A stretch of DNA of 64,000 nucleotides from a virus (lineage: Duplodnaviria > Caudoviricetes), in IMG/VR virus record IMGVR_UViG_3300037310_000564, positions 1 through 64,000 of that record, one strand, 5' to 3'. Under the pieces are notes generated by a model, which did not search any database, had not been told where the DNA came from, and was given only the letters and a program-made list of their open reading frames with translations. The translations under genes were made by a program, and so were the position numbers. Positions within the stretch are counted from its first letter, which is position 1, and each line of letters opens with the position of its first letter. Below are positions 13,843 to 63,158 of this stretch, piece after piece.

Positions 13843-13870
13843 TTATCGTCATATTGCTGGAAAAACTTTA
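13843..13870 (-). promoter_or_regulatory. sigma28 (FliA)-like promoter upstream of the mini-gene array
   Basis: Minus strand reads TAAAGTTT-N12-GACGATAA, one base longer than the consensus spacer with one mismatch in the -10. It overlaps a GATAAAAT late-type motif. Confidence 0.6.
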
Positions 13871-13871
13871 A

Positions 13872-15416
13872 TTAGCTAATAAAGCTGAGTGGTAATGGTT
13901 GGGTAGAGCCGGCAATCGTAATTAGCAGAGAGACAGCAATGCCTGTTCCTGTGGTTGAAACTTTGGCAATTTCCACTGCTCTATAACGACCATCCTGCAG
14001 CAAAGACTCTCTTAATAGTTGGCCAAAAATGACAGCCTCATTTGTAGATCCAAAAAAGCGGCTGCCAATGTCTACCGTAACACCATAATTAGGGTGGAAA
14101 GGTAGATCGCCACGTATGGTTTTCAGCGCATTTAAGGCCGCCTGTTTAACAGCGGGGAGACCGGCAACAAGGCGGAAATTGCCGCCGGCATCTATAGACA
14201 GGTCATTCTTTTCATCGCGAGCAAAATCCACGCCAAACTGTAATAAAGCCAAATCTAGGCGCCTCAAATCGTCCCGTGATGGTGTTGGAATAGAGGAGCT
14301 TATTTCACTAGCATCACGGGATGGGATCAAAATAAACTGTCCAGGCCGGGTGGTGCCTGGTTGATAAATCCTAACAAACCCTCCCTCAGAGGGCTTAAAT
14401 CTGTTAATGTCTTGATTTCCTGACAAAAACAAAATTAGTGTGCCATTGTCATTGGCAATAACTCGGTCAACGATCCTGGTTTCTTCACGGTATCTATGGC
14501 TGCCAATACCAATTTTAGTCCCCACCGGCACATCAGACTTTCTGGAATCAGAGATAATTAGGTTATTGGATGCTGCAGGAGCCAACAATGGAAACTTTTC
14601 GCCAACCAAATCAATATATGGTGGCTGTAAATTATTAACCGTCACCAACTCCAACCAATATTGTTGGTCGCCCATGTATTTTAATGCCATATGTTCCAAA
14701 GAAATCTCAAACAATTTAGGCACATATGACACAAAAGTATCATCAAATGTAATTTTGGAGGCTGGATTGATAGTTTGCTTGGTTAAGGCCAAAACATTGG
14801 GAGGCCTTTTTTGAGATTCCTTTAAGAAGTAAATAAGGGAATCAATAAAAGCGTGCGTTTCGTTGATCTGGTCGATATCCTCCAAATCAGCAATGGTTGC
14901 TGAGCGCTGCTTGGCTTTTGTTTGCAATCCCAATAACTTGGCAGCATCCTCATCACCTAAGCCAATAATTTGGGCACGGTCAGCAGCATCATATCGCAAA
15001 AACCTTTGCATATTCTGAAAGTCTTCAATATCAAGCTTCTGAATCCTCTCAATTTCTTGGTTTTTGTAAATTAGTTCATCAGGGGATAATGAAAGGCTAG
15101 ATAACAAGATTAAATCTAAAAAAGGCTGAACATTAAGAAAATTGTTAATTTGATTTAGGGGGTTAGTGGTATTTCCTAACTTATAGCTATTAATAAAACG
15201 CTCAAAATCTTCAAACTTACGCAATAACACCTCATCACCATTGGAAATTTCCATAAATGATTCTGAGAATGAGCTCCAATTAGTTACAATCCATGTCCAC
15301 CTATTTTGCGCCAAAACCTGAAAGTCTCCCAAAGATAATGGGGAGTTAGATAATAGTTTGGTATAGGTGTTAGCATCAGTTATAACTTGATATAAATTTG
15401 TATAAATATTGGCCAT
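13872..15416 (-). CDS. Baseplate protein: LysM-like (gp53-like) region fused to a C-terminal gp25-like domain
   Basis: SLEHMALKYMGDQQYWLELVTVNNLQPPY (LysM-like); DLSIDAGGNFRLVAGLPAVKQA...RGDLPFHPNYG...LLQDGRY (GPW/gp25-like). Confidence 0.75.
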   Translation of the reverse strand: MANIYTNLYQVITDANTYTKLLSNSPLSLGDFQVLAQNRWTWIVTNWSSFSESFMEISNGDEVLLRKFEDFERFINSYKLGNTTNPLNQINNFLNVQPFLDLILLSSLSLSPDELIYKNQEIERIQKLDIEDFQNMQRFLRYDAADRAQIIGLGDEDAAKLLGLQTKAKQRSATIADLEDIDQINETHAFIDSLIYFLKESQKRPPNVLALTKQTINPASKITFDDTFVSYVPKLFEISLEHMALKYMGDQQYWLELVTVNNLQPPYIDLVGEKFPLLAPAASNNLIISDSRKSDVPVGTKIGIGSHRYREETRIVDRVIANDNGTLILFLSGNQDINRFKPSEGGFVRIYQPGTTRPGQFILIPSRDASEISSSIPTPSRDDLRRLDLALLQFGVDFARDEKNDLSIDAGGNFRLVAGLPAVKQAALNALKTIRGDLPFHPNYGVTVDIGSRFFGSTNEAVIFGQLLRESLLQDGRYRAVEIAKVSTTGTGIAVSLLITIAGSTQPLPLSFIS

Positions 15417-15422
15417 TTAGCA

Positions 15423-16373
15423 TTACCCATTTTTTTTTCTGAAAAAATAATTCGTTAAGTTCTTCATTGTGGTTGGACTAATAGTGACTACCTCTTTTAA
15501 GTCACCATTAGGACCAAAACGATCTATGGCCTTTTGAGATTCGGAGACGCTCTTAACATCCCACGCCTTTAAGTTGATGTTATACCTTATAAGCATTGGA
15601 TTTTGCACAGATTGTTGAAATTGAGGGTCTTGCAATATGCAACGCCACTCCTGTCCTGTTTTATAATTCCTAAATACCATCCGGAGATTTGGGTTTTGTT
15701 CTTTGGCCTTAGAATAAGCAAAGAAAAACCTTTGCATCTCTAGCGCTTCTGTAAAACCATTACTGTCTTGTGTAACTGCCGAAGCATTATAAGGAATGTT
15801 TGGTAGCAAGGCAGCATTTACTGTACTGGCCGTCCCTGAAACAGCTCCAACTATGTCACCATCCTTAGCAGAATCAAGTATGTCAATTGATTTTCCCAAA
15901 ACACCACCAACCTTAGAGATGGCCTGTTGCACACCTGCCAACGGCCCCGATAATAGACCAGTAGTGGATATTTTGTCCCTAAATTGTGTGGCAACCTCTT
16001 TTCTTAAGTCCTCGTCCCCGGCGGCACGACTAATGGCCGTTCCTGTGGTTCCGGACATTGAAATGAGCCAAAACACATTGGAGCCAGTTTCCTCCACAAC
16101 ACCGCCTAATGTGGCTGTGGCTTGGGAGGCTGTTACTTGCTTAACTACGTAAGATTGTGGAGGAATTGGTAAAGTATAGTAAAATTTTTCAGGGCCGCCC
16201 TCAACAATGAATTGATATGCAAAAACTTTATACCAATCCTCGCCGGTAAACTCCCATGGCTTAGAGCCTAATAGTTTATAAATTCCGGTCTCAGAGCTTG
16301 GTGTGATGGCTCCATTGACTAAGTTCTTTAAATCTTTGAATTTTTTACTTAAATTATCAACTGAAACTGCCAT
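15423..16373 (-). CDS. Putative baseplate/tail-tube initiator protein
   Basis: Position in the baseplate cluster; YTLPIPPQS and QQSVQNPMLIRYNINLKAW resemble tube-initiator folds. Confidence 0.5.
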   Translation of the reverse strand: MAVSVDNLSKKFKDLKNLVNGAITPSSETGIYKLLGSKPWEFTGEDWYKVFAYQFIVEGGPEKFYYTLPIPPQSYVVKQVTASQATATLGGVVEETGSNVFWLISMSGTTGTAISRAAGDEDLRKEVATQFRDKISTTGLLSGPLAGVQQAISKVGGVLGKSIDILDSAKDGDIVGAVSGTASTVNAALLPNIPYNASAVTQDSNGFTEALEMQRFFFAYSKAKEQNPNLRMVFRNYKTGQEWRCILQDPQFQQSVQNPMLIRYNINLKAWDVKSVSESQKAIDRFGPNGDLKEVVTISPTTMKNLTNYFFRKKNG

Positions 16374-16468
16374 TTGTGCCCAAGCCCTATAAAATGATCC
16401 ATTTTCATTTTAACAACGAAGGGATTGATTCACAGGAAATTCTGTATTATGACTCATGCTCACGCTTC

Positions 16469-17098
16469 TTATAAAATTGTCCCGCCAGTTCCTGCTCCTA
16501 ATGTTATTGGGCCGCCACCAGCAGAACATAGGCCCGACACTACTGCTAAATTTACCGTAGCATTATCCATGACATGCTTCACAATAGCGTCAGACATCTT
16601 TTGCAGCTCCGGGCTGGCCGAAGCCTGGCCAATGCCGGCAGCCCAAAGTTTGGCCATACCACTGCCTGATAGGCCGCCAATCTTGCCGCCGGCACCAACA
16701 CCAACCAAAGGGCCTGGAGTAGTTGGCGTATTGGCACACGCTCCAGTTATCTGGCCGGCCGTAAAGGAAACTGTTCCTGTTAGGAAGTGAGCGGCCATGC
16801 CATTGGCCATTCCCAAAACTTGAGGAGTTGGTGGCCCAAAAGCTAAAGCTAAAAAAGGCATGAAGGCGGCAGGGATTAACACAATCATTCCTCCGCTACC
16901 CTCGCCTGCAATAAGGGGTCCGCCTGATGGTGGTGCCGTACCGGTAATTGTGCCGGGCAGAAAGCTTACAATCCCGGTTTGCAAAAAACTCACAATAGCC
17001 GTAGCAAACTGCAGATTGACCACGGCGGTATCTTCGCTGCCTTGCCCCGCTGCCTCTTTTATTTCATCCGCCAGTTTTGATGGATTAAGTGGCATCAA
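16469..17098 (-). CDS. Gly/Ala-rich baseplate protein, possibly the spike tip
   Basis: Overlaps the end of the spike gene by 4 nt; internally duplicated Gly-rich halves. Confidence 0.45.
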   Translation of the reverse strand: MMPLNPSKLADEIKEAAGQGSEDTAVVNLQFATAIVSFLQTGIVSFLPGTITGTAPPSGGPLIAGEGSGGMIVLIPAAFMPFLALAFGPPTPQVLGMANGMAAHFLTGTVSFTAGQITGACANTPTTPGPLVGVGAGGKIGGLSGSGMAKLWAAGIGQASASPELQKMSDAIVKHVMDNATVNLAVVSGLCSAGGGPITLGAGTGGTIL

Positions 17099-18353: not shown

Positions 18354-20273
18354 TTAAGACAAAAATGACCCAGAATTTCCCAGCAAGTTCTTGGGAAGGG
18401 ATGGAATGTTGCCAAGCAAGTTGCTGATTGGTGAAGATTTGTCTGACTGTTGTGGCAAATTAATCAAATCCCCCAATGATTCCGGTGGTATATAAAATAA
18501 CACACCCGATCCCAAATCCAAAAACATTACCCTGGATAGGGCCACGGTCATGACCGTTTCCTCTAATCCATTAGGCAACACCCTAAACGATACCGAAATG
18601 TTTTCAATATGTCCAACAAAATCATTCTTGCCAAAAGTAAAATGCAAATTAAAACCAATAGTTAAGGCTATTGAAGGATCCTTGATAATTAGTGTGGCGG
18701 AGGGCTGTTTATAATTAAATGCCTGCCATGCCTTAATAACAGCATTGGCTGTTTTAACCCATTCCTCTAATCCAATCCCAGATTTGTCATGGGCTGTTGA
18801 AAGAGATACCGGATTGTACTGTGAGGCAGCGTCCAATTGTTGACCGCCAAACCGACGCACATGCTTATCTAAACGAAAACGGGAAAAGGAAGCAACTGAT
18901 TGTTCCAGTTCATGCCGTCCAGCCATTGATTGTGGAGCAAAAGTAAAGTAATTCGGGGAGTTAAGCATTGTTCTTTGAAAGGATATCTTCTGGATATACT
19001 CAGAAGGAATAAAGATTCGGGGAATGTGATCGTATCGCGTCCAGTTCTTCTGAAGCAGAGCTCCTTCCTTTGCATCAAGCTCGAATTTAGCCGGATTGTT
19101 GACTATAACGGATGGCAAAAAGGGTTTATCTCGCACAAATAAAACAGGACGTACAGTTAGTGCTCCATTAGACTCTTCATAAAGCAAATCTGTGAAAGTT
19201 TCGTGAAAAAGTGAATCAACATACTGACTTAACAAACTCCAAATTGAAGTTGTTCCAAGGCTGGCCAACAAACCACTACCAGGAGCTAAAGGTCTAACAT
19301 CACTCTCTTTGGCAAATTTTTGCTTAAATTCCTCAATCTCCCCTGTGCCAAAGACGCCATCCCAAGACTCAATTGACCTATGCTCATCAGTTTGCACTCC
19401 ACTAATGACATCCAACAGCCCTCTACCGGAATTTGTTTGAAAGGGATTAAGGGGATTGTCGACTGAATACCCTAGACGCTTTAGTAAGGCGTCTGGGATA
19501 CTTGGCATGGAGACACCCAGCTGTGAAAAATTACCGGCCTTTAGTGCCTTAACCGTATCTACCATGTCTTTTTGATTAATACAGCCAACTAAGGACAATA
19601 TAACTTGCGCAAATTCAAAGCAATTAAAGGTTTTTGACACAATATTATTTAAGGTTTTGGCGGGAGACTCACCCGTAATGGCTTTAATCATTCCGGCCGC
19701 GCCAGAAATATCCTTTTTGACAGCGTCCGCAAAACTGCCCACATCAAACTTAACTGGAGTGGTTAGCATTGATGCCCATGATCGGATTCCAATGCTGTTT
19801 TGTTGCGCAACAAGACCATTTTCTAGTGTTACATAGTCCACATTGATGGTGTGGATTTGTCCAAAGAACTTAATTAGGTGTTTTTCCGAATTATTTGTGG
19901 CTGTTACAATTGATGAAATCAAAACCCATGTACCCTCAACTACCGCCTTAGGCAATGGACCGACCATGGTCATTGTGCATGGGTGTTCCGGCGTTCCCTT
20001 TGACCTTTCAAAATTAAGTGAGGTAATTCCATTTTGGATATATTGTGTTTTATCATCGCCAGCAAACCCTTGTTCTTGCAGCTGTTTTTTGATTTTGGCG
20101 ACATTTGAGTTTTTAGAGCCCACCACCTGAATTGGCAAAATATTATTAATGCTGGGTCGAATTGGGCCAGGAATACCGGGGGGCAACGTGATTTCCTGGT
20201 CGTCCAGCGGATCGGCCTTTTCATATGGATAAAACTCAACTATCCAATTTTGTTTTGTTGATACTGTTGTCAT
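18354..20273 (-). CDS. Baseplate hub protein (gp27/gpD-like)
   Basis: Sits between tape measure and spike. Contains ITSLNFERSKG and C-terminal IGFNLHF...VGHIENISVSF, a hub-like pattern. Confidence 0.65.
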   Translation of the reverse strand: MTTVSTKQNWIVEFYPYEKADPLDDQEITLPPGIPGPIRPSINNILPIQVVGSKNSNVAKIKKQLQEQGFAGDDKTQYIQNGITSLNFERSKGTPEHPCTMTMVGPLPKAVVEGTWVLISSIVTATNNSEKHLIKFFGQIHTINVDYVTLENGLVAQQNSIGIRSWASMLTTPVKFDVGSFADAVKKDISGAAGMIKAITGESPAKTLNNIVSKTFNCFEFAQVILSLVGCINQKDMVDTVKALKAGNFSQLGVSMPSIPDALLKRLGYSVDNPLNPFQTNSGRGLLDVISGVQTDEHRSIESWDGVFGTGEIEEFKQKFAKESDVRPLAPGSGLLASLGTTSIWSLLSQYVDSLFHETFTDLLYEESNGALTVRPVLFVRDKPFLPSVIVNNPAKFELDAKEGALLQKNWTRYDHIPRIFIPSEYIQKISFQRTMLNSPNYFTFAPQSMAGRHELEQSVASFSRFRLDKHVRRFGGQQLDAASQYNPVSLSTAHDKSGIGLEEWVKTANAVIKAWQAFNYKQPSATLIIKDPSIALTIGFNLHFTFGKNDFVGHIENISVSFRVLPNGLEETVMTVALSRVMFLDLGSGVLFYIPPESLGDLINLPQQSDKSSPISNLLGNIPSLPKNLLGNSGSFLS

Positions 20274-23200
20274 GGTTTAGACCTAATATCTTTCGGAACA
20301 AGCTCTTTTTTATCTGCATCTAACCAAATACGCATGTCAGCCCAGTTCTCGATACGGACAGACTGAATTTTAGACTCCATTATCTCAGTGTTCAGGGACA
20401 TATTACGTGCTAAGGTTAATGTATTGATATCCTTCATACTTTCTTCCGCAGCTTGCAGGAATGATGTGTCGCCGTCCTTTTGTGCCTGTGCAATCGCCTT
20501 TTGGGTGATTCTTGTTCCCTTCAGGCTTTCTTTTCCGGCCGCTTTTGCCGCCTGCTCTGAAATAGAAAAGGCATTTCCGCCAGCATCAAGGAAGTCACTG
20601 TATACTTTAGAAGTTGGAGTTACACGCTCCACGGTTGTTGTGAAGTCTGCCAAAACTTTATTCAAGAATTCTCTACGATTCCTAATGGCAGGATCAACGC
20701 CTTTGGCTTTACCAAGTTTCAAATCCTTGTCCAGCCTTTCGATATCTCCAGACGAAAACAAATCCTTGCCGGCATCATCTTTTAGACCTGAAGCGTATAC
20801 CATGGCAGCCGCCGAAGCTGAGTCCGCCCCCATGTCTAATCCAGCACCTATTGCTCCGGAACGATTAACAAATTCCTGCAGAAGAGCTTGTCGTTTTTTT
20901 GGATCTTTTTCGTTTTTTAACCTCTCTGCCCACGCCTTAGATGTAGTCCCTAACCCGCCGCCTTCAATGGCACTCATTAAGGATCCGGTCTCAGACAGGT
21001 TCATAGACTTAAGACGTTCAATAAGAGTTTTTTTATCCCCGCCGCCTGCCGCCAACAACCTGCGGGTCTCTGGAGACATGTTTTGACCTGTCTCTAATTG
21101 TTTAATCATGTCCATTCGTTGTATGATGTTTGTGTCAGCCACGGCAGCAAAGCCTGAATTCAAATCAAAGCCTGCCGCTGAAGCCGCTGCGGCCTTGACC
21201 ATCCCCGGAAGACCCGAAAGACGTCCGGAATATCCCGACAATCCCTGAATGCCACGCGCTGCCGCCTGAAGGTCGAGGTCATTGCCTTTACCGCCGCCTG
21301 CCGCCAATGATAAGTTAGATAGCAATCCTGAAGTTAGGCCTGTTGTTGCTTTCGATGCTTCCATTAAGTCCGCAGCAATATTAACAAAACGGGACGCCCT
21401 GGACTTGTCAAAACCAGCAGAAACGGCGTCAGAAAACATTGAGGTTAACATCTTAATATTGTTTTGATTTCCGGTTGTAGCATTAAGCTTAGCCAAGTTT
21501 TGGAGTTGTTGGTCAAAATTGCCATATCCTGACAAAGAAAGCATGGACATTTGGGTAAAGTCTTCTGAGTTGGCTATTTTGTCAAAACCCAATACAGAGG
21601 TAATTCTGTTCTTTCTGCTCATCCCCTCAGCTTCAGAAAGGCCAAACTTAGAATAAGCGGTTGATAATCTTGAGACTTCTGTGGGGACATCATATTCTTT
21701 GCTGAGGACTCCGGCTACCTGCCCGCGTTCCATTGTAAGTAGTCTTTGTTGCTTATAAATACGATCATAAGCATCCATTTGAGCATCACTAAACACCCGT
21801 CTGGAAACGGCAGACAAACCATCCAGACCATCCTTCTTAGTCCTAGGGTCGTTAGCCATGGCGCTGTATTTGGCAAAATCTCTATAATTTGAATCTTTGG
21901 CTTCAAGGTCGTTAAGCTTAGATATTTTAACCTCCAAAGCCTCTAATTTCGCCACGTTAGGATCGTTGTTGGCTCGGGCCTTATTTAAGATGTCCTCCCG
22001 TGATCCGCGCTCAGCTTTTGCCTGCTGAATATCTTGGAAGCTTTTAGAGCCATACTTATTTAGAGACATTAATTCACTTTGTGCAGAGGCAGCGTATCGA
22101 CCCCCAACCATTTCAACACCTTGAGTTTGCGCCTGCATCATGGCCTGAAACTCTTTAAGTGCCAGTAAGGTATATGGATTTTTCTTAACCTCAGCTTCCA
22201 TATATTGATCGGCTCTTTGTTGAAGGTCGCTGACAATCCCTCCTTGTGCGGCTTTTTGTGCCATGGCCGCTCGACGTTGCCAATCAGGTCCATACATTAA
22301 CTCACCAGCAGCGCCGGTTAGGCCAGATCCAAGCCCACCAGTAAGGGCCGTGTAAGGATTTTTTATATAATCGGATATGCCACTGGACGCACTATTAATA
22401 ACCGAGGCAGCTCCTAAGCCAAGCCCGGCAAGCGCACCAGGTACATTTCCAACCACGGCGCCTATCGCTGTGGCGCCCGCAGTCTTAAGAACGCCCTCAG
22501 CGACATTTCCAATAGATCCAAATATATGGCCTAAGCGGTCCTTTTCTTTTAAATCGATATTCTCTTGAACATCTCGATTGGCCAAATCCAAAGCATTTTG
22601 GTATCCACGTGTGCCAATGTTTGTAAACTCTCGACTTGGCTGTAATAAATTGGCCCGGTATTTCAATATGTTTTCAGGATTGGTCATGTCATTGGCGTCA
22701 AGAACTTGCTGGGCATATCTCTGAATAATGTCAGCCTTAGCTTGATCGGCGGCTATTTGCTTATCTATAGTTGCACTACCCATGGCAGTATAAGTGCTGA
22801 AACCAGCCTGAACCGCAGATCCAGCTACCACAACTCCTGCGGTGGCTAAACCAAGCATACGATTCAATACAGCGGCTTTAGCTGGACTATCATCTTTATT
22901 GGTGCCACCACCATCCCCGCCGGATTGTTTTATAATTTCTTTTGCCTGAGTTTGAGTTTGGTCTAAGCGTCCAATAGCATTGACCAAATTTCTCATGGCA
23001 TTTGTTTTTTCGCTCTCAGAAGCCGTCTCAGACTGGGAAACCTCTTGATAGTTTTTAGTTGCCTCGTCCAACTTTTCTGTGTTTTGGGCAATAGCAAGCT
23101 GTAACGTCTTTAGGTGATTGCCTAAAATGGTGGAAACATTGTCATTTTTTGACGCAAAGGCTTTAATCGCACTTTCAATTTTGCTACCGCCTTCGCCTAA

Positions 23201-23905
23201 GATGGAGGAGGTTGCTCCCCTGACCTTTACCAGGTCAGTGATGCCGTAGCCAATTCCAGAAAAATCATGGGACGATGCCACTGTTCGCGTTGGCTGTGCT
23301 GCTTTTCTTTTCTCAACAGCTATACCCAAATCATCTTTTATTGATGCAGCTAAATACTCGGGATCCATCCCAGAAACATATTCTGAAGCGGACGATGCCA
23401 CTGTTCGCGTTGGCTGTGCTGCTTCTCTTTTCTCAACAGCTATGCCCAAATCATCTTTTATTGATGCAGCCAAATACTCGGGATCCATCCCAGAAACATA
23501 TTCCGAGGCTTTCGACAAAAACTGCTGTTTTCGTTTTTGGTCATCAAGAGAAATCGTATGCAAGCCCATTCCGGGCGCAACCAAAATGCCGCGACCAGGC
23601 TTAAACACAAGATTATTATTGGAACCGACCATAACATCTGGGTTGATTGTGGCCGTCGCCTTTTTAAAATTAGCTTCGGCCTGAGAGGCTAAATGTTGGG
23701 TATATACCTCTTGTGCAGACACTCCTTGTGGTGTCATGTACTCAATGCGCGAATTTTGCTGAGCAACTTTTGATCCAAGACCGTCTGACAAAGAACCGAG
23801 CATGCCAAATAAAGAGGATGCGACGCTTTGCAATCCCTTCATTGCCTCGGACAAAGAATTAACATCACTGACGGTAGTGCGTAGGTTCTTTTGGATCTCG
23901 GCCAT
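20270..23905 (-). CDS. Tape measure protein
   Basis: About 1210 aa, Ala/Gly-rich and helical, upstream of the hub. Likely ATG at 23905 after GGAG (track start 23926). Confidence 0.8.
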   Translation of the reverse strand: MAEIQKNLRTTVSDVNSLSEAMKGLQSVASSLFGMLGSLSDGLGSKVAQQNSRIEYMTPQGVSAQEVYTQHLASQAEANFKKATATINPDVMVGSNNNLVFKPGRGILVAPGMGLHTISLDDQKRKQQFLSKASEYVSGMDPEYLAASIKDDLGIAVEKREAAQPTRTVASSASEYVSGMDPEYLAASIKDDLGIAVEKRKAAQPTRTVASSHDFSGIGYGITDLVKVRGATSSILGEGGSKIESAIKAFASKNDNVSTILGNHLKTLQLAIAQNTEKLDEATKNYQEVSQSETASESEKTNAMRNLVNAIGRLDQTQTQAKEIIKQSGGDGGGTNKDDSPAKAAVLNRMLGLATAGVVVAGSAVQAGFSTYTAMGSATIDKQIAADQAKADIIQRYAQQVLDANDMTNPENILKYRANLLQPSREFTNIGTRGYQNALDLANRDVQENIDLKEKDRLGHIFGSIGNVAEGVLKTAGATAIGAVVGNVPGALAGLGLGAASVINSASSGISDYIKNPYTALTGGLGSGLTGAAGELMYGPDWQRRAAMAQKAAQGGIVSDLQQRADQYMEAEVKKNPYTLLALKEFQAMMQAQTQGVEMVGGRYAASAQSELMSLNKYGSKSFQDIQQAKAERGSREDILNKARANNDPNVAKLEALEVKISKLNDLEAKDSNYRDFAKYSAMANDPRTKKDGLDGLSAVSRRVFSDAQMDAYDRIYKQQRLLTMERGQVAGVLSKEYDVPTEVSRLSTAYSKFGLSEAEGMSRKNRITSVLGFDKIANSEDFTQMSMLSLSGYGNFDQQLQNLAKLNATTGNQNNIKMLTSMFSDAVSAGFDKSRASRFVNIAADLMEASKATTGLTSGLLSNLSLAAGGGKGNDLDLQAAARGIQGLSGYSGRLSGLPGMVKAAAASAAGFDLNSGFAAVADTNIIQRMDMIKQLETGQNMSPETRRLLAAGGGDKKTLIERLKSMNLSETGSLMSAIEGGGLGTTSKAWAERLKNEKDPKKRQALLQEFVNRSGAIGAGLDMGADSASAAAMVYASGLKDDAGKDLFSSGDIERLDKDLKLGKAKGVDPAIRNRREFLNKVLADFTTTVERVTPTSKVYSDFLDAGGNAFSISEQAAKAAGKESLKGTRITQKAIAQAQKDGDTSFLQAAEESMKDINTLTLARNMSLNTEIMESKIQSVRIENWADMRIWLDADKKELVPKDIRSKP
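23271..23510. repeat. 120-bp tandem duplication within the tape measure gene
   Basis: 23271-23390 vs 23391-23510 differ at 6 positions; it encodes two 40-aa copies of SEYVSGMDPEYLAASIKDDLGIAVEKR[EK]AAQPTRTVASS. Confidence 0.95.
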
Positions 23906-23954
23906 TAAAAACTCCAAATAAAACAATAACCTACGTTATTTTAGCATTTTTTGC

Positions 23955-24257
23955 TTAGTCAAAGCTTTTGATAAAGTCTGGAGAAACCATCGCTATTGCG
24001 CCATCAGAGTGGTTCTTGAGGATAAAAATCAAGGCCGGTCCTTGGGGGGTTTGTAAAAGCGACGACCCAATTAAAGATGCCTTATTTACCGCCTTGGTAG
24101 CTCCAGTTAACTGGATGCCCGACGGAGTTTTGTCCGCTTCCCAGGTGAGTGTGCTTAGTAGCGGTGATTTGCTAATCCTATCAAGTATTTGGTCGATTTT
24201 GGCGGACAATTCCGCTACTTCCCTTTTAATTTCATTAAGTTGGTCTAAATTTGACAT
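23955..24257 (-). CDS. Hypothetical protein
   Basis: GGAG RBS; N-terminal coiled-coil. Confidence 0.7.
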   Translation of the reverse strand: MSNLDQLNEIKREVAELSAKIDQILDRISKSPLLSTLTWEADKTPSGIQLTGATKAVNKASLIGSSLLQTPQGPALIFILKNHSDGAIAMVSPDFIKSFD

Positions 24258-24266
24258 AAAAACTCC

Positions 24267-24953
24267 TTAATTATGCTCAACACTTAATCTGTCATAGATG
24301 TTTGGTAATGTTCCACCAACCATTCCCCATTCTATATCAGGAATGAATTTATCAATAGTACTAAGATAATCGGAATTAATCATCTGTGATGTTGTTTGGA
24401 AGCACATCACGCCATGCTTATGCCTATTGATCATGGATTGGTGCTTACTACACTCACCGATGAAAATAAAAAACATAACATCCTGTTTTTGATTGAGAAT
24501 GTTAAGCACGGCAGTAGTAATTGGCAAAAACAAATCATCCCGAATAAGGCTGGGGGATCCGGGCAAACTGCACGCCAAACTCATTGGCATCATTAAGATA
24601 TTTTGCCTGGCCCAGCCCAAAAAGGAGGTGTGTTTTGGATTAATTCGCCGCCCTGTCCTTTTATGGACAGACAAAAGAATATCCTTCCCCTCATCTGAAA
24701 TGGAAAATGAATTGTCTGGACCGCCAAAGAAAAGAAAGTCTCTACCATAACTGCTGAATCTGGCTGATGCTTTTGGCTTATCAAAAACAAAAACCACACG
24801 CACTTTGGAAAATTCGGTTGCGGTAAAGCATGTGAACAAATAATCCTTATGTGGAATGCATCCGCGAGGAATTGATATTCCTCCGGATATTAATTGTTTA
24901 AGCGTGGCATTCCAACTAGAGTTGGGCATCGTTTTGCCTGTCGTTAAAAGCAA
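24267..24953 (-). CDS. Uracil-DNA glycosylase (family 1 Ung)-like protein with degenerate catalytic motifs
   Basis: Collinear with Ung: PHKDYLFTCFTATEFSKVRVV, GWARQNILMM, ITTAVLNILNQKQDVMFFIFIG, PDIEW. GQDPY is replaced by FDKPK and HPSP is absent. The start may be ATG 24929. Confidence 0.7.
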   Translation of the reverse strand: MLLTTGKTMPNSSWNATLKQLISGGISIPRGCIPHKDYLFTCFTATEFSKVRVVFVFDKPKASARFSSYGRDFLFFGGPDNSFSISDEGKDILLSVHKRTGRRINPKHTSFLGWARQNILMMPMSLACSLPGSPSLIRDDLFLPITTAVLNILNQKQDVMFFIFIGECSKHQSMINRHKHGVMCFQTTSQMINSDYLSTIDKFIPDIEWGMVGGTLPNIYDRLSVEHN

Positions 24954-24979
24954 TCTGCAAAAGCAACTTCTTGATTTTT

Positions 24980-25216
24980 CTAATCTTTTCTGAAGTCCTG
25001 ATCTTCGTTTTCTGTTCTTTGTTGATCCTGTGGCCGCTCAGATTTATAATTTTTAGCTCTTTTTTCATCAATTTCCTCGTTCACAATGGCTGCCATAAAC
25101 GATGCCACAACAATAGCCGTAGACCATAAAATAGGCAAATCGGTTCTTTGATTAACAAAAAGCACTAACAGACCAGTAACCAAGCCCGTCAAAAAATAAT
25201 AAACCTTAAGTATCAT
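24980..25216 (-). CDS. Small membrane protein (2 TM)
   Basis: Two hydrophobic segments and a charged tail. Confidence 0.65.
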   Translation of the reverse strand: MILKVYYFLTGLVTGLLVLFVNQRTDLPILWSTAIVVASFMAAIVNEEIDEKRAKNYKSERPQDQQRTENEDQDFRKD

Positions 25217-25240
25217 ATAAATGCCCTTTGTGGCAACAGC

Positions 25241-25783
25241 TTAATTTGCCAGGAGATATTTTTCTCCCAGTTCGCAAATAAAGCTCCGATAGTTGAAATT
25301 ATTAATAGATATTACTGATCGCAAACAATCAACAAATAACATGCCATCAATAATTAACTTACCTTCTGGTTGCTCATTCTGGGATGGAGAGCCGTAAACA
25401 ATAGACATCCTGTTGAGGTGATTCTCAAAATTACTATAAAGTTCGTCACTTGTATTGTCCCGAACCTTATTAAGGCTTTCGTTTTTTGAAACTTCATCAG
25501 CAAACCATAATACAAATGGAGGATTATCAGTGAAACCAACAACCAGAGCAGCGTACAATAGGTGCTCATCATTGAAGGATAGGCCTTCGCTGTTACGCAC
25601 CAAAAATTCATGGCTCAAATAGAAAACTGCATCGTCAGTAGTGGCAATTCTAGGTCCGCTTCCTTTCCCAGTCATATCACCAGCATATAACACACCTCTG
25701 TCAAAACGTTTTTTCCAAGCTGATCGTGTTCCAAAAATGCTTTTTGAGGCTCTGGCTAATAGCTCTTTTTGTCGATATTGCAT
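25241..25783 (-). CDS. Hypothetical protein
   Basis: GGAG RBS before ATG; 180-aa ORF within the operon. Confidence 0.7.
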   Translation of the reverse strand: MQYRQKELLARASKSIFGTRSAWKKRFDRGVLYAGDMTGKGSGPRIATTDDAVFYLSHEFLVRNSEGLSFNDEHLLYAALVVGFTDNPPFVLWFADEVSKNESLNKVRDNTSDELYSNFENHLNRMSIVYGSPSQNEQPEGKLIIDGMLFVDCLRSVISINNFNYRSFICELGEKYLLAN

Positions 25784-25825
25784 GCACTATCTCCATCTGG
25801 CGAATAAGTTTAGATTTTTGGCAAT

Positions 25826-26164
25826 TTAAGGTTGTGTTTCTTGAGCTAAAGTAGGATCTTTCACTTTCATAATTTCATTATTAAGAGCAAAAACTGGAGC
25901 TTTGTCCAATAAAGACAGGCCGTTATTTTCCCACCAACCAACATCTGGCGAACTTATGATATGAAATGTTATAAAAGCCAACATGTAATAAAACTCAATG
26001 TCTGGGGGAGAAGTAAGCCCTCTAGTATAAGTCCCGGCCAACCTTAAGGCATCTGAGCGCTCCTGAAGGTTGAGATAGGGCTTAATCTGAAAGGCACCAG
26101 TATATTGATGGCCCGTCTCTTCGCCCTTAGTGTTCACATCAATCCATTTTGGTTCATTATTCAT
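25826..26164 (-). CDS. Putative tail assembly chaperone
   Basis: YTGAFQIKPYL...SSPDVGWWENNGLSLLDKAPVFALNNEI resembles myophage chaperones found between tube and tape-measure genes. Confidence 0.55.
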   Translation of the reverse strand: MNNEPKWIDVNTKGEETGHQYTGAFQIKPYLNLQERSDALRLAGTYTRGLTSPPDIEFYYMLAFITFHIISSPDVGWWENNGLSLLDKAPVFALNNEIMKVKDPTLAQETQP

Positions 26165-26543
26165 TGGTCACACCCTTATCTTTTGGCTGTATAAACTCGC
26201 CAGTTTGAAAGAATTCATGAGCATTTTGCATAAACTGATCATTTTCGGGACTTAGGTCAGCAAAAAGATCCTCACCAGACTCCGCGAAGGCCTTTAATGA
26301 CTCAGACACTTCAGAGGTTTTATCGCCTACAGACTTTAGCAACTCTAGCTCAAATATAAGATCGTCCAGTGTTCGTTGTGAGAAATAGCTGTCAAAAAAC
26401 GGGATGTTATATGCCTGACTAAGCCTAAACCTCAACACATTAATGAAATCATCATCATTTTCAACAAGGCCGTCCTTGATCCTTTGAGCTTTCTTTTGCA
26501 TTAGTTCAATTCGTTGCTGGATGAAAGTTTCAAGATGGATCAT
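26157..26543 (-). CDS. Putative tail assembly chaperone partner
   Basis: RLSQAYNIPFFDSYFSQRTLDDLIFE motif; position after the tube genes. Confidence 0.45.
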   Translation of the reverse strand: MIHLETFIQQRIELMQKKAQRIKDGLVENDDDFINVLRFRLSQAYNIPFFDSYFSQRTLDDLIFELELLKSVGDKTSEVSESLKAFAESGEDLFADLSPENDQFMQNAHEFFQTGEFIQPKDKGVTNE

Positions 26544-26569
26544 ATGAGCCTCAACTGATAGTCTCGGTG

Positions 26570-26598
26570 ATTAGATCACAACTCTAACAAAAAGTCAA
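26570..26598 (-). promoter_or_regulatory. sigma70-like promoter
   Basis: TTGACT-17-TCTAAT with extended TG, upstream of 26543. Confidence 0.6.
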
Positions 26599-26639
26599 GT
26601 ATTTTTTAATTGGGCTATTGATTAATGTGATGTGTGGAA

Positions 26640-27272: not shown

Positions 27273-27318
27273 AAAAAACTCCAAAATTAAATAGAAAAGT
27301 GAGAAAGAAAGTCGCAAA

Positions 27319-27975: not shown

Positions 27976-27994
27976 GATAAAAAATCTCCCTTTA

Positions 27995-28537: not shown

Positions 28538-28594
28538 TTAAATTCTCCTCTGAGGGTTAGAGAGTACGCCTCACTGGTTGTTTTCATTCCCAAC

Positions 28595-28623
28595 TTGACA
28601 AAAAGATGGGATTGTGATACCTA
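28595..28623 (+). promoter_or_regulatory. sigma70-like promoter
   Basis: TTGACA-17-TACCTA with a TG extension; the -10 is imperfect. Confidence 0.45.
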
Positions 28624-56583: not shown

Positions 56584-57747
56584 GTGACGACTAAAAATAA
56601 ACAAACAAATGACCCGAAGGTTGTGGATGGTGTGGTGTGGACCAAGCAGATGATTTTTAAGCTTGGGCATTTGCGCCTTAAAAAAGAGATGAGCTTTGCG
56701 GAAATTGGTGAATATTTGGGCTTTTCTGAATCTGCTGTTAAAAATGCTTATTACCGAGCTGTTGCCAAAGGTTATATGCCACAACTAGGCTTAACAAAAG
56801 AGATTCCTGACAGCCACCAACTCAAAAGAGTGTCCACTAATTACGATAGCGATGGCAAACTAAGGCAGCAATGGGTAATCCAAGTACCTAAAATGGAGCA
56901 CATAAAGAAATTTATGGACGCGGCCTTGGATGTTTTATCATCCAGAATGCCCGATAATGTTGTGAAGCCGGTTATTCCAGCTCCTCAATACGACCCAACT
57001 AAAGTTGCCGTATACCCAATAGGGGACGCCCATTTTGGCTTATTGTCATGGGGAGAAGAGACCGGCGAGGATTATGACCTAAAAATTGCCCAGAGATTGT
57101 ATAAAGAGGTATTTAGTACCTTGATTAACAACTCCCCAAGTTGCGGCACTGCGGTGCTGGTAAACGTAGGTGACTGGTTTCATTGCGAAAACACGAAGGG
57201 CATTACAGAAAGGTCTGGCCACCATTTGGATAAAGATAGTCGTTACGACAAAATGGTTAGGATTGGGCTTCAAGTCCAGGTAATGCTCATCGAAACCCTT
57301 AGAAAAAAACACAAACATGTTCATGTCATTAATGCTAAAGGAAACCATGATGAAACCATGGCCACTTGGCTCAATCAGGCACTAGCACTAAGATATAAAG
57401 GGGAAAAAAACATATCTGTCGATACTAAGCCTGGAGCCTTTTCCTTTTTTAGGTTTGGAAAGAATTTGATTGGCGTAACCCACGGATTAATTAAAAAAGA
57501 GCGATTACTTGGGGTTATGGCAGCACACAAAGACTGGAGTGCAACAAAATATCGCATTTGGCTAACTGGCCATATTCACCATAAAACGGTCATAGAGGAT
57601 GGCGGACTGACCATAGAGTCTTTCAATACCCTAACAGCAAAAGACGCATATACGGTTGAAAATGGATATATTGCAAAACGCAACACTTCGTGTATTATCT
57701 TTGATAAGGAGCGTGGTGAAGTAATGCGCCTCACCATTAACCTATAA
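56584..57747 (+). CDS. HTH-fused calcineurin-like metallophosphoesterase
   Basis: SFAEIGEYLGFSESAVKN HTH; GDAHFG, VGD, GNHD, THG, GHIHH. Confidence 0.85.
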   Translation: MTTKNKQTNDPKVVDGVVWTKQMIFKLGHLRLKKEMSFAEIGEYLGFSESAVKNAYYRAVAKGYMPQLGLTKEIPDSHQLKRVSTNYDSDGKLRQQWVIQVPKMEHIKKFMDAALDVLSSRMPDNVVKPVIPAPQYDPTKVAVYPIGDAHFGLLSWGEETGEDYDLKIAQRLYKEVFSTLINNSPSCGTAVLVNVGDWFHCENTKGITERSGHHLDKDSRYDKMVRIGLQVQVMLIETLRKKHKHVHVINAKGNHDETMATWLNQALALRYKGEKNISVDTKPGAFSFFRFGKNLIGVTHGLIKKERLLGVMAAHKDWSATKYRIWLTGHIHHKTVIEDGGLTIESFNTLTAKDAYTVENGYIAKRNTSCIIFDKERGEVMRLTINL

Positions 57748-57762: not shown

Positions 57763-58242
57763 ATGAGTAAATTATGTTGGTTATTCTTTATCTTACTAAC
57801 GCTTTTTGGGTGTGTTTCTGCAAATCCAACACCACCAAAGGATGATGTCCTATCCCACTCTGAGGTGATTTGGTTTTTGTCACATTCTTCTGGTATTGGC
57901 TCTGTCAATACTGTTAAAAATAACAATTTAGGCCCTGATGCTTGTGAATCCTATTTGTTGGAAATTCATGATGTTGCCAAAATTGCTGATGTGCCATTTT
58001 ATATTGGGATTCAGAATCCAGCATTTATTATTGCACTCTCGATCAAGCCGCTATCTGGTTCTTCTTTCTTTGCGGATGGTTATGTTTTTACAGGGGATCG
58101 TGACAAAGCAGTAATAAAGCTGTTTGGTGGCCAAAAATATGACACGTGCTTCGAAAGCACTCCAGACCATACAGCCATAGACAGAAATAAGCCATTACGT
58201 GTTTACCGCGTTTCAGGAAAGGTCAATGCCAATGAAAAATAA
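57763..58242 (+). CDS. Lipoprotein
   Basis: Lipobox LFGC after a hydrophobic stretch. Confidence 0.7.
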   Translation: MSKLCWLFFILLTLFGCVSANPTPPKDDVLSHSEVIWFLSHSSGIGSVNTVKNNNLGPDACESYLLEIHDVAKIADVPFYIGIQNPAFIIALSIKPLSGSSFFADGYVFTGDRDKAVIKLFGGQKYDTCFESTPDHTAIDRNKPLRVYRVSGKVNANEK

Positions 58243-58570
58243 TTACACCACAGCGCTAGTATTGTTATTTGTACTATCTGTTATTAACATGACTGGAATT
58301 ATTATGGTTGGAGTAGACATTAACCATAAAACATCTGAATTATTCAGAATTATGGACATGATGGACATGAAATTCTCCAGAATAGAAAAGTTAATGAATG
58401 ACACGTCCAAGTCCACCCAGGAGGCCCAAACAAGCACGGAAGACAGAATTAATACTCTAAATGAAAACCTCCACTCTTTGCACCAAGACATCCTCACCAC
58501 ATTAGAGCCTGAAAATTTTAAAATGATGGTGTATGATGGGTGTAAACCAGCCAAATCATTCAAAAAATAA
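58226..58570 (+). CDS. Membrane-anchored coiled-coil protein
   Basis: N-terminal TM helix; AGGAAAGG RBS. Confidence 0.65.
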   Translation: MPMKNNYTTALVLLFVLSVINMTGIIMVGVDINHKTSELFRIMDMMDMKFSRIEKLMNDTSKSTQEAQTSTEDRINTLNENLHSLHQDILTTLEPENFKMMVYDGCKPAKSFKK

Positions 58571-58576
58571 AAACTC

Positions 58577-58604
58577 TTAAGTTTTTAAGTAGATTTGCCG
58601 ATAA
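58577..58604 (+). promoter_or_regulatory. sigma28-like promoter
   Basis: TAAG-N15-GCCGATAA. Confidence 0.75.
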
Positions 58605-58636
58605 GTAATTGAGACTTCACCTTATTGGGGGGCTTT

Positions 58637-59404
58637 ATGTTTCAATTATTTATCGTTTTTTTGGTATTGGCTATATCATGCCGACCATCGCCTTGGCAAG
58701 TAAACATATCTGACTCAGATCTGACCAGGAAGCACATGGAAGCTCTATACAAAATTGACAAAAAAACACCTCTTGTTTTTGCAATTATTGGCGATACCCA
58801 AGCCGTTCCTGAATCTTTTTATCAATCTATTCAATATCTTAATGAACGTGACGACCTACATTTTATAGCCATTGCTGGAGATCTAACAGACGTTGGTTGG
58901 AGCGCCGAATGGGACATCCTTGGAAAAATCATTAAAAAAAGCAGGGTTCCGGTTTTTACAGTGGTGGGAAATCACGATGGACTGAATTATGGCAAAAAAA
59001 TTTACAAAAAGATGTTTGGTCCATTAAATTACTGGTTTGAGTATAACGGCTATCGTTTTGTGTTCTGGAACAACAATAGTTATGAATGGGAAAATGAAGT
59101 TGATATTGGGTGGTTAGAGGAAAGTATTACACCCAACTCTATTGTATTTGCACATCAGCCCCCAAACAGCAAAGCATTACCAATAGAGGCTGAGCAACGA
59201 TGGTTGGTGGCTCGTCAGAAAGCTGTAATGTCTTTACATGGCCACACACACAAAGAGCAAAACCCGGGGAATCGAGTTTATGTGGTGGGCAGAGTGCCGG
59301 AATATGCAATTGTCTCAATTAATGGCCGGGCCGTGTCTATTGAGAATTGTAAGCCACAAGACAAGCATATTTGTAAACAGGCGGTATCATATGAAAATCA
59401 GTAA
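58637..59404 (+). CDS. Lipoprotein calcineurin-like phosphoesterase
   Basis: Lipobox AISC; IGD, AGD, GNHD, AHQP, HGHTH. Confidence 0.85.
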   Translation: MFQLFIVFLVLAISCRPSPWQVNISDSDLTRKHMEALYKIDKKTPLVFAIIGDTQAVPESFYQSIQYLNERDDLHFIAIAGDLTDVGWSAEWDILGKIIKKSRVPVFTVVGNHDGLNYGKKIYKKMFGPLNYWFEYNGYRFVFWNNNSYEWENEVDIGWLEESITPNSIVFAHQPPNSKALPIEAEQRWLVARQKAVMSLHGHTHKEQNPGNRVYVVGRVPEYAIVSINGRAVSIENCKPQDKHICKQAVSYENQ

Positions 59405-59903
59405 AATAATTGCAACAATAGGTTTGTTTTCGGCACCATTGACATCCAATCTGGCACTGGGAATGGAAAATTTGTACTGCTCGGCACAGAGCGGCGCCTT
59501 TTTGGGAGCCCTGTCACTTGGGTGCGGTTTGTATGAGCGGCACTATCAGTTATTTTTCATGAGGGCTTATACGCCACCGATTATTGTGTCTGACTATCCA
59601 ATTCATACTTTTGGTTTAAAAAGCTCCTTAAAATTCAGTAACTTATATATCGGAACCTCTATTTTATACAACACAGACAACAAAAACACCTTTGCCAAAT
59701 TGCCTGACAAATACCCTGCAAAATACTATCCCCTCACCGGGATTAGGACAGTTCCACATTTGGGGATAATCCTTTCTGACTCGAATTTTGTAGAAGTGGG
59801 AACTGTAGATTATCTTTTAGAACTAAGAGTCAGAAATTCCCAATATATTCAGTACTATGACGTTATTTCTATTGGCATAGGACACACCTTTTTGGCCAAA
59901 TAG
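59391..59903 (+). CDS. Secreted / outer-membrane beta-rich protein
   Basis: Signal peptide MKISKIIATIGLFSAPLTSNLALG, amphipathic beta strands, C-terminal GIGHTF (track start 59238). Confidence 0.6.
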   Translation: MKISKIIATIGLFSAPLTSNLALGMENLYCSAQSGAFLGALSLGCGLYERHYQLFFMRAYTPPIIVSDYPIHTFGLKSSLKFSNLYIGTSILYNTDNKNTFAKLPDKYPAKYYPLTGIRTVPHLGIILSDSNFVEVGTVDYLLELRVRNSQYIQYYDVISIGIGHTFLAK

Positions 59904-60940: not shown

Positions 60941-63099
60941 TCCACCTAAATCTAAAAAAATTCAAGCAATTTAGTGACTTATCCATAGAATTACCCGAAA
61001 CTGGCTTAGTCATGCTTTCAGGGCCTTCTGGTGCGGGCAAAACATCAGTCTTTGAGGCCATGCGGGAAGCGTTGTGGGGAGATGGGGATGATGTTCAACC
61101 ATGGGGCAGCACAAAGAGTTGTGTTGAATTGAAGGCATGGGGACTTAACATCACACGATCACGTGGCTCTAGGTCTTTGTTGGTAAATGGTAAGCCAGAC
61201 GCTCAAGGGGAAGAGCTAATTGAAAATGCTTTAAGAATGGATGTTCATGAATTCATGGCCAGTTCCTATATACAACAAAAGCAGAAAAACTCTCTTTTAT
61301 CACTAACCCCGGCAGAACAATTAAGGTTTGTGCAGCGGTTAGTGGCTGGTTCAGTGGACCCTGAGCTGTTTAGGTCCAAACTTGCTGTAATTAAGCAACA
61401 GGTGGATGCTGCGCTGGATGCTATGAAATGGCAACAGGCCAAAATGGAAAGTGAAAAAGAGTCTTTGCAAAATCAGGTTGGTGTGTTGTTAATTCAACTG
61501 AATGCCACAGTCACACCAAATGGTATGACGGATGAACAAATTATTAATAATTACAATATGTTGAATAAGGCAAATGAAGAGATCTTAGCCTGCTCTAAAA
61601 CGATTGCGCAGCTATCTGCGGCAATTCAGCAAAATCACTTCAACAAAACGCAAAAAAACAATCTTAACAACAGAAGGGTGGAACTGTTAGACTCTATTGC
61701 CAAAAAACAACAAACGCTCCAAACTCTTCAGCAAAAAATCAATAAAAGGGATGACTTAGAGCAAAAATTGATTGAAAATACTCACCAAAAAGAACAATAT
61801 CAAAAGGTAATTGAGTTTTGGCATTGGAATGAAAAAAAAGACAGCTTCGTTACCTCTTTGGGATTGGAGCTGGGAGGATCTACTGTTGGCGATGCATTAC
61901 AGAGATCAATCCAGGAACTCGAGAATAGACATGGTGCTTACCAGCAGAGCGCCCGAGACCTCTCGCGTACAGTGGATCTAATGCAGCTCAACAAAGGTAG
62001 CCATTCCTGCCCAGAGTGCGGCACTGCCTTGGGTATCGACAAGGGGAACATTGTCAAAAAAACAGCATTTGATCATGCGATGTTTCAGGCCAAGACCGAT
62101 GAATTGTCCGCTCTAACAACTAAAATCACTAAGACCGGCGATGAGATTAGGGTGCGGCAATCTCATCTTATTCAATATAATGATTTAATAGGAATTTATA
62201 AAAACCTTTTAGTAAAAAAAGCCACCATTCCGAAAGAAGAGGCGCAAAAACAAATCCAATTCCTTTCCCAGGAAAATGAAAAAATAACTAATATTCTTGA
62301 GGATGTGCGGGCAAATTCAAAAGCCATCAGTTTATTAGATGACGACTTAACAGTTTTTGCTAAAAAGGTGGCCGAAATTGATTCTGAGATTTCTGCCATT
62401 GGACAGATCGATGAGTCTTCCATGTTGGCCGAAAAGGAGGCGATGGATAATAAGCTTAAGGATTGGCACTCTATTAAGTTGACAGTTTTTAATGCCGCCG
62501 AAGACTTTCAAAATTGGAGCCAAACAAAGGCCAAAAAAGAAAGCATAGAAATGACCGTTAAGTCATTAAACCACACGATTCAACAAAAAGAACGGGATAT
62601 TCAAGCACTTAGCATAGATATAAAAAAACAGGCAGCAAAGGCCGGAGCCTGTAGGCGATTATTGGACCTAAGCAAACAAGCCTCCATGATGGCCATTAAT
62701 CATTTGCTTGAAGAAATCAACTTTTACGCCACCACGACTCTTTCTGGCTTCTTTCCCTCTGAGGGAACATCCATCCGATTAAGAAACTCATACGAAACGC
62801 AAAAAGGTGAGCAAAAACCAAAAATTAGCTTAGAGATATTCCACAAAGGACAAACACCTAAGAAGCTTTCCTCCTTATCCGGAGGGGAGGAATCAAGGGT
62901 GACTTTGGCTTTTCAGATGGCCCTGTCTGAGCTATATAACTCTCCAATATTATTAGTAGATGAAGGATTTGTAGGCCTACCTTTGGAACAAAAACTGGAA
63001 TGCCTTGAGATGCTTAAGCCAATATCCCAAAAGAAATTGGTTTGTGTAATTGAGCATGGCATGCCTGAGCACGTTTTTGACCAAATAATCTATATCTAA
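60937..63099 (+). CDS. SbcC/Rad50/gp46-like ATPase
   Basis: GPSGAGKT, coiled coils with a CPEC hook, LSGGE, LLVDEG. Confidence 0.92.
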   Translation: MIHLNLKKFKQFSDLSIELPETGLVMLSGPSGAGKTSVFEAMREALWGDGDDVQPWGSTKSCVELKAWGLNITRSRGSRSLLVNGKPDAQGEELIENALRMDVHEFMASSYIQQKQKNSLLSLTPAEQLRFVQRLVAGSVDPELFRSKLAVIKQQVDAALDAMKWQQAKMESEKESLQNQVGVLLIQLNATVTPNGMTDEQIINNYNMLNKANEEILACSKTIAQLSAAIQQNHFNKTQKNNLNNRRVELLDSIAKKQQTLQTLQQKINKRDDLEQKLIENTHQKEQYQKVIEFWHWNEKKDSFVTSLGLELGGSTVGDALQRSIQELENRHGAYQQSARDLSRTVDLMQLNKGSHSCPECGTALGIDKGNIVKKTAFDHAMFQAKTDELSALTTKITKTGDEIRVRQSHLIQYNDLIGIYKNLLVKKATIPKEEAQKQIQFLSQENEKITNILEDVRANSKAISLLDDDLTVFAKKVAEIDSEISAIGQIDESSMLAEKEAMDNKLKDWHSIKLTVFNAAEDFQNWSQTKAKKESIEMTVKSLNHTIQQKERDIQALSIDIKKQAAKAGACRRLLDLSKQASMMAINHLLEEINFYATTTLSGFFPSEGTSIRLRNSYETQKGEQKPKISLEIFHKGQTPKKLSSLSGGEESRVTLAFQMALSELYNSPILLVDEGFVGLPLEQKLECLEMLKPISQKKLVCVIEHGMPEHVFDQIIYI

Positions 63100-63131
63100 T
63101 CCAATAAATTCCAATGCTTATGTATTAGTTG

Positions 63132-63158
63132 TAAAGTTTTTCCCAAAAAGGCCGATAA
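63132..63158 (+). promoter_or_regulatory. Perfect sigma28 (FliA) consensus promoter
   Basis: TAAAGTTT-ttcccaaaaag(11)-GCCGATAA. Confidence 0.85.

Follow-up and report, generated by a model that had tools for sequence, protein, structure and literature searches.

Which form of RNA polymerase would initiate transcription at a set of promoter-like sites that recur between the genes of a large tailed phage? The sites lie on IMGVR_UViG_3300037310_000564 (here G000), an IMG/VR viral contig of 80,707 bp with a GC content of 42%, which is ~49% complete as estimated by CheckV. The window analyzed here is the first 64 kb of this contig, and window coordinates start at contig base 1. The sites resemble the promoters of sigma-28, which is called FliA in E. 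coli and Salmonella and SigD in Bacillus; the consensus of its class 3 flagellar promoters is TAAAGTTT-N11-GCCGATAA. The data support the view that the sites are a genuine and conserved promoter class with this consensus, and we suggest that they are probably read by the host's own sigma-28 (FliA) holoenzyme, a reading to which we assign a probability of about two in three.

The virion genes on the contig are those of a phage with a contractile tail (sheath, baseplate, major capsid protein, and a ClpP-type prohead protease). The replication block comprises a DnaB-like helicase, a GroEL-like protein, SbcCD, DNA polymerase III alpha, a RecA-like protein, a primase, and ThyX with an intein. Myxococcus phage Mx1 is the sole GenBank phage with detectable similarity (21% identity in the capsid and 28% in the sheath protein), and the phage, an Mx1-like myovirus, is presumably virulent.

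Sigma-28-type sites in the phage and its relatives

Allowing up to two mismatches to TAAAGTTT-N11/12-GCCGATAA, seven matches are found on the contig, six of them in the window:

P1: 13843-13870, minus strand; one mismatch, TAAAGTTT-N12-GACGATAA
P2: 34852-34878, minus strand; no mismatch (perfect), spacer N11
P3: 43277-43303, plus strand; two mismatches, TTAAGTTT-N11-GCCGATAG
P4: 49971-49998, plus strand; two mismatches, TAAAGGTT-N12-TCCGATAA
P5: 58577-58604, plus strand; one mismatch, TTAAGTTT-N12-GCCGATAA
P6: 63132-63158, plus strand; no mismatch (perfect), spacer N11
P7: 77768-77794 of the contig, past the window, plus strand; two mismatches, spacer N11

A first-pass annotation of the window had listed six sites, two perfect and four nearly so. 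All six were found again, the imperfect ones with one or two mismatches; the perfect minus-strand site is real and spans 34852-34878, one base off the 34851 given before. In all seven sites the -35 box has at most one mismatch to TAAAGTTT and the -10 box at most one to GCCGATAA, with CGATA, and thus the CGA core, invariant. The spacer is N11 in four sites and N12 in three.

The genome-wide scan and enrichment test that the first-pass annotation had proposed (spacer 10-12, up to two mismatches, 30 dinucleotide shuffles of the genome as null) gave seven distinct sites against an expectation of 0.13 (Poisson P ~1e-10). All seven are located in the non-coding 6% of the genome, as defined after removal of three doubtful small open reading frames; two of the sites fall in such doubtful frames with TTG starts, which we do not accept as genes. 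When the non-coding DNA alone was shuffled, 0.013 sites were expected there and the maximum in 2000 shuffles was one. At the level of three mismatches four further distinct sites appear, all of them intragenic and close to the chance expectation of 3.6. Therefore the motif is not equally frequent inside genes; an equal frequency there had been named as an outcome that would refute the proposal. Each of the seven sites is co-oriented with a nearby downstream gene or RNA. Consensus sigma-70 promoters are no commoner in this genome, with four intergenic ones at up to two mismatches.

Relatives were collected by protein-guided IMG/VR scans. G001, G002, G003, and G004 are related in the structural module (45-61% sheath identity), G003 being a 9.5-kb fragment. 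The more distant G005 (110 kb), G006 (162,747 bp), and G138 (122 kb) are each ~42% identical in polymerase III alpha. G006 is complete (terminal repeats, 100%) and syntenic with G000; a further relative, G139, is complete at 158.6 kb. The motif was found in every one of G001 to G006 and in G138, except for the short fragment G003: four to six sites each in G001, G002, and G004, eight in G005, 17 in the complete G006, and six in G138, as compared to none or one for a reversed-pattern control. The sites of G005 and G006 read cTAAAGTT(T/A)-N11/12-nnCGATAA, and most of them are followed by GGAGG and then by an ATG 18-40 nt downstream. G001 has a promoter at the place of P2, just past the capsid gene (26467-26494), and in G006 some sites head genes that immediately precede the capsid gene.

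When G006 alone is used to choose the sites, eight of them have a counterpart in G005, and seven of these retain the motif. The lone site not kept is intragenic and has no downstream gene; it is a chance hit. Over the seven pairs with a retained site, sequence identity is 95% in the boxes as against 77% in the spacers and 67% in the 40-nt flanks. These values come from a subset ascertained on a motif match in both genomes; thus it is the unbiased count of seven out of eight that carries weight.

Candidate sigma factors

Sigma-70-family domains were sought in six-frame translations of G000 to G006 and G138 with the models Sigma70_r2, r4, r4_2, and TIGR02937 and with a model derived from five FliA sequences of Oligoflexia. 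None was found, the search covering ~49% of the genome of G000 and the complete genome of G006. Also, no homologue of the putative sigma factor of Mx1 was detected by tblastn in G000 to G006, no FlgM-like anti-sigma factor in G000, G001, G002, G005, and G006, and no flagellar gene, FliA, or FlgM in the phage DNA analyzed. The first-pass annotation had offered a sigma28-like factor of the phage's own as an alternative and had advised looking for it and for an anti-sigma factor; neither turned up in the genomes searched, and for the sigma factor these include the 80.7 kb of the contig and three larger relatives with the motif, of which one is complete. The search was sensitive enough, as the same searches picked up two weakly matching sigma-like proteins, that of Mx1 (E = 4e-5 and 2e-10) and that of G139 (360 amino acids, E = 7e-8).

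Across eight genomes the two features are distributed in a complementary way: a sigma-like gene without any site in Mx1 and G139, and sites without a sigma gene in G006, G005, and G138. Since the motif-bearing genomes lack a detectable sigma factor and the sigma-bearing relatives lack the sites, the host sigma-28 is the best reading. A factor which reads the exact bacterial consensus in both boxes should moreover retain FliA-like regions 2 and 4, and this also favours the host protein.

The same observations make it unlikely that a phage-encoded sigma-28-like factor, located in the missing half of the genome or too divergent to be recognized, reads the promoters. Such a factor is suggested by the incompleteness of the contig and by the sigma-like proteins that the distant relatives Mx1 and G139 encode near their packaging genes; yet these two genomes are devoid of the motif, an exact-consensus reader ought to be detectable by its regions 2 and 4, and no sigma domain is detectable in the complete G006 or in G005 and G138. 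It is further suggested by one protein of G000:

56584-57747, plus strand: 387-amino-acid protein; helix-turn-helix resembling that of sigma region 4 (PF08281, 27.5 bits) at the N-terminus, joined to a metallophosphoesterase

We do not regard this protein as a sigma factor: region 2 is missing, a sequence comparison with solved sigma structures gave no match, and G006 has no homologue. It belongs to a widespread helix-turn-helix-phosphoesterase family with >590 homologues, which occur on phage contigs as well as in genomes of Pseudomonas, Lysobacter, and Microvirga, some of them under the annotation 'oxidoreductase'.

It is scarcely credible that the motif is the binding site of another protein (a phage regulator or other alternative sigma factor) with a coincidental likeness to sigma-28, as two sites match in 16 of 16 positions, none of the seven departs from the CGA core, the boxes are always 11-12 bp apart, ribosome-binding site and ATG follow at a promoter-like distance, and only 0.013-0.13 sites are expected by chance.

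Units headed by the sites

The units which follow the sites within the window, together with the terminator ahead of P2, are:

10014-13793, minus strand: array of 16 mini-genes headed by P1 (from the open reading frame list)
34879-34912, minus strand: intrinsic terminator of the major capsid gene, hairpin of -17.4 kcal/mol and T-run, directly upstream of P2
34005-34811, minus strand: membrane-anchored ClpP-like protease, first gene after P2 (Pfam CLP_protease, 1.1e-7; N-terminal hydrophobic helix)
43323-43460, plus strand: 45-amino-acid peptide, 19 nt downstream of P3 (membrane helix at the C-terminus)
50004-50102, plus strand: candidate small RNA from P4, ~98 nt, ending in the hairpin 50068-50095 and U7
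58637-59404, plus strand: lipoprotein metallophosphoesterase, first gene after P5 (Pfam Metallophos, 7e-15; lipobox LAISC)
59391-59903, plus strand: secreted partner protein, second gene of the P5 cassette (signal peptide)
63373-64053 (window part to 64000), plus strand: lipoprotein lytic transglycosylase headed by P6 (Pfam SLT, 9.5e-14; lipobox AISC)

P1 abuts the stop codon of the baseplate gene 13872-15416, and the ATG of the first mini-gene lies 49 nt downstream of P1. At the same baseplate-gene junction P1 and the array are missing in G002, G004, and G006, the flanking genes being 61-209 nt apart there; from this sequence comparison the array is an insertion. P2 begins 12 nt past the strong capsid-gene terminator. 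The protease that follows has its likely start at the ATG at 34811, with GGAG 40 nt past the -10 box, and its homologues sit in the replication block of G006 and Mx1. It converges with a second protease of the ClpP fold, the prohead protease (33124-33861, plus strand). P3 is located inside a doubtful 75-amino-acid frame with a TTG start and is antisense to the surrounding minus-strand genes; the 45-amino-acid peptide behind it belongs to no Pfam family. In the P5 cassette the lipobox cysteine of the phosphoesterase is nearly invariant among its homologues. A weak terminator is seen at ~64080 after the transglycosylase gene, and no clear one after the P5 cassette or the mini-gene array. The P7 unit encodes a 96-amino-acid protein, ThyX, and a helicase.

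The data support the conclusion that the sites of G000 head accessory cassettes, and the first-pass annotation was right in pointing them into accessory genes. Its description of the gene set as largely envelope-directed holds for this contig but not for the relatives G005 and G006. If a signal peptide, a lipobox, or a membrane helix is taken as an envelope signal, five of the seven first genes have one, compared to 8 of the remaining 91 genes (p = 3e-4 in a post hoc Fisher test). In G005 and G006 only about one of 17 genes headed by a site is envelope-directed, and most are small cytoplasmic genes of the early type. The envelope bias is a property of the insertions of G000 and not of the promoter class. 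P5 itself stands in the middle of an envelope island that encodes four such proteins consecutively (57763-59903, plus strand), namely a lipoprotein with the lipobox LFGC, a membrane protein, the lipoprotein phosphoesterase, and the secreted partner.

P4 is situated between two 83-bp direct repeats (49878-49960 and 50173-50255) at a strand-switch region, and the Rep-like gene is 370 nt away. The earlier view that this site points into the repeat and Rep region is not supported by the sequence which follows it, a folded stretch of ~98 nt that ends in a clear intrinsic terminator (11-bp hairpin and U7) before the Rep gene. The minimum free energy of this stretch is -36.1 kcal/mol (z = -3.3), and none of 200 shuffles folds as well; no Rfam family matches it. 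Judged by these features, P4 most likely drives a terminated small RNA of ~98 nt rather than the Rep gene. Regulation and the priming of an origin are possible roles of this RNA.

The two genes of the P5 cassette are also adjacent in Oligoflexus and other bacterial loci, where a homologue of the partner immediately follows the phosphoesterase gene. The closest named homologues of the phosphoesterase are from Oligoflexus and Pseudobacteriovorax (Oligoflexia), with 35-39% identity. In a maximum-likelihood tree the phage protein falls into a well-supported clade (SH-aLRT, the Shimodaira-Hasegawa-like approximate likelihood ratio test, 99) with five Oligoflexia sequences, seventeen unnamed metagenome proteins, and one contig of a bin labelled Polynucleobacter, separate from 73 mostly Bacteroidota sequences. 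By descent, as far as sequences can tell, the cassette is a captured bacterial operon, and its nearest kin in the Oligoflexia (Bdellovibrionota) give a weak hint of the host.

One may ask whether the sites as a whole are captured host promoters, carried in with host genes and without a regulatory role for the phage. The descent of the P5 operon would agree with this, as would the moron-like look of several units, with a promoter of their own and, clearly for P4 and weakly for P6, a terminator. Nevertheless, we consider it very improbable, as the bacterial homologues of the cassette have no sigma-28-like site (up to four mismatches) within 400 nt upstream, promoters of this type also stand before genes specific to the phages (the mini-gene array, small genes of the early type, and the pre-capsid genes of G006), and sites are conserved between G005 and G006. 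The lack of an upstream site in the bacterial copies suggests that the phage supplied the promoter.

Host lead and relation to known systems

A true FliA (288 bits) is present in all five Oligoflexia genomes tested, those with the nearest homologues of the P5 cassette, which contain 20-40 consensus matches as compared to 8-16 for the control. The best of these matches lie ahead of genes for a DUF4423 protein, lipoproteins, and secreted proteins. In three Oligoflexus genomes the DUF4423 ortholog (~285 amino acids) is preceded by a sigma-28 promoter that equals the consensus or nearly so. In phage and Oligoflexia sites alike the -35 box is followed by a T-run and CC, an observation which we do not use as evidence.

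Host prediction, which had also been recommended, yielded the kinship of one cassette with Oligoflexia, and all direct tests were negative. The CRISPR-like repeat of the phage (up to three mismatches) is absent from 131 genomes of the Oligoflexus phylum. BLAST of window positions 20001-40000 against the same genomes returned only short chance-level matches and a 94-nt match to the phosphoesterase motif. The lipoprotein 57763-58242 has no homologue in Oligoflexus-phylum genomes, and an alignment scan of genome contigs with the tail sheath gave no match. The ESM Atlas taxa and the best identity of the GlpX protein of G006 (54%) are uninformative on the host. The heptosyltransferase-like gene of G006 suggests, on the basis of its annotation, a Gram-negative host. 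Among sequencing runs the stretch occurs in freshwater and groundwater DNA only. Scans of metagenomes and viral sequences with the helicase gene at the contig end gave no match, and the missing half of G000 was not recovered.

Several points weigh against a reading of the sites by the host sigma-28. The Oligoflexia hint comes from one gene pair, and in the bacterial copies of this pair the upstream site is lacking. Upstream of the flagellin genes in the five Oligoflexia genomes, agreement with the consensus is poor (4-7 mismatches). No run on record as RNA contains the stretch. In addition, G006, the complete relative lacking a detectable sigma factor, shares only ~40% protein identity with G000; as the main reservation, the half of G000 that is not on the contig may encode a sigma factor, and a very divergent sigma factor or a protein that retargets RNA polymerase would escape the Pfam and NCBIfam models. 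As a separate observation, some Oligoflexus flagellin upstream regions show sigma-54-like TGGCA boxes, and most flagellin genes have no sigma-28 consensus.

If host sigma-28 RNA polymerase initiates at the sites, as we infer together with its timing, they would be the private promoters of cassettes placed within core operons or between them. The units so driven would be the mini-gene array, the membrane ClpP-like protease after the capsid terminator, the 45-amino-acid membrane peptide, the P4 RNA near the 83-bp repeats, the lipoprotein phosphoesterase operon, the lipoprotein lytic transglycosylase, and the unit of small protein, ThyX, and helicase. Their expression would track the free sigma-28 of the infected cell and with it the motile state, and in a Bdellovibrio-like host it would fall in the attack or free-swimming state. 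Judged from the promoters, a tie of phage genes to the motile state of the host is plausible. A wider scenario we put forward tentatively, as possible and rather less probable than not: a clade of large freshwater myoviruses with a distant relationship to Mx1 may have given up the family sigma factor and may use the host sigma-28 for early-type genes, inserted envelope cassettes, and an RNA by origin-like repeats. The hosts would be motile and Bdellovibrionota-like, with sigma-28 in control of their entire free-swimming or attack programme, and their life-cycle state would gate phage expression.

With class 3 flagellar promoters the sites share both boxes and the spacing, to the point of 16 matching positions out of 16 in two sites and the CGA core in all; unlike them, they are on a phage genome and head non-flagellar genes and a small RNA. 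In Bdellovibrio bacteriovorus sigma-28 is a global regulator of the swimming phase, and a FliA-like box, TTAAG-N16-CCGATA, was found in 92 of 140 attack-phase promoters with mapped transcription start sites, among them promoters of surface-protein and protease genes (PMC3627812); the association of FliA with attack-phase transcription, invoked in the first-pass annotation, is thereby borne out. The matches in the Oligoflexia genomes would agree with this picture. In Bdellovibrio, too, promoters of the sigma-28 type head surface proteins, proteases, and small RNAs and not only flagellar genes, and P3 and P5 read TTAAG, P5 with the N16 geometry. On the other hand, that regulon is chromosomal and mapped by start sites, ours is on a phage and known from sequence, and the cassette hints at Oligoflexia, not at Bdellovibrio.

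An invertible FliA-dependent promoter has been described at prophage csrA-tldR loci (bioRxiv 10.1101/2025.07.22.666180). It is likewise a sigma-28-dependent promoter on phage-derived DNA; in contrast to the genome-wide class in large myoviruses described here, it is single and tied to flagellin remodelling. A full-text literature search found no published sigma-28-type promoter class across large tailed or lytic phages.

Morons are units of promoter, gene, and terminator between core genes, classically in temperate phages and with sigma-70 promoters. The P1 array shares with them its own promoter and its absence from the junction in three relatives; similarly, a terminator precedes P2, a weak one comes after the P6 unit, and P5 heads a captured bacterial operon. 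Different are the sigma-28 type of promoter and the presumably virulent phage. Phage-encoded sigma systems are known from SPO1 (gp28/gp34) and T4 (gp55). As in these systems, and with the putative sigma factor of Mx1 (OR576727.2), a dedicated promoter class other than sigma-70 is found across a large phage genome, whereas here no sigma gene is found in the motif-bearing genomes and the sigma-bearing relatives are without the motif.

Textbook phage transcription relies on the host housekeeping sigma factor, a phage sigma factor, or a phage RNA polymerase. The host motility sigma factor as promoter reader would, if true, be a different strategy, coupling phage expression to swimming. The motif would then be a signature for host prediction, because hosts must be flagellated and hold sigma-28, as well as a means to spot accessory cassettes in uncultured phage genomes, and the sites would be ready-made test promoters.

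Some further features of the phages may be mentioned. The ThyX gene is broken by an intein (Intein_splicing, 3.4e-15; contig position 78097-79446, past the window). Opposite-strand accessory genes accumulate at a hot spot that separates the tail genes from the sheath gene (28614-29985, plus strand, in the window; 9439-16610 in G001). It holds a dUTPase and a phosphoesterase in G000 and sigma-28-headed lipoprotein and membrane protein genes in G001 and G002. Finally, G006 carries three unusual auxiliary genes:

L029:18299-19201: GlpX fructose-1,6-bisphosphatase (1.6e-111)
L031:6939-7901: deoxyhypusine synthase
L030:12958-13887: heptosyltransferase-like gene

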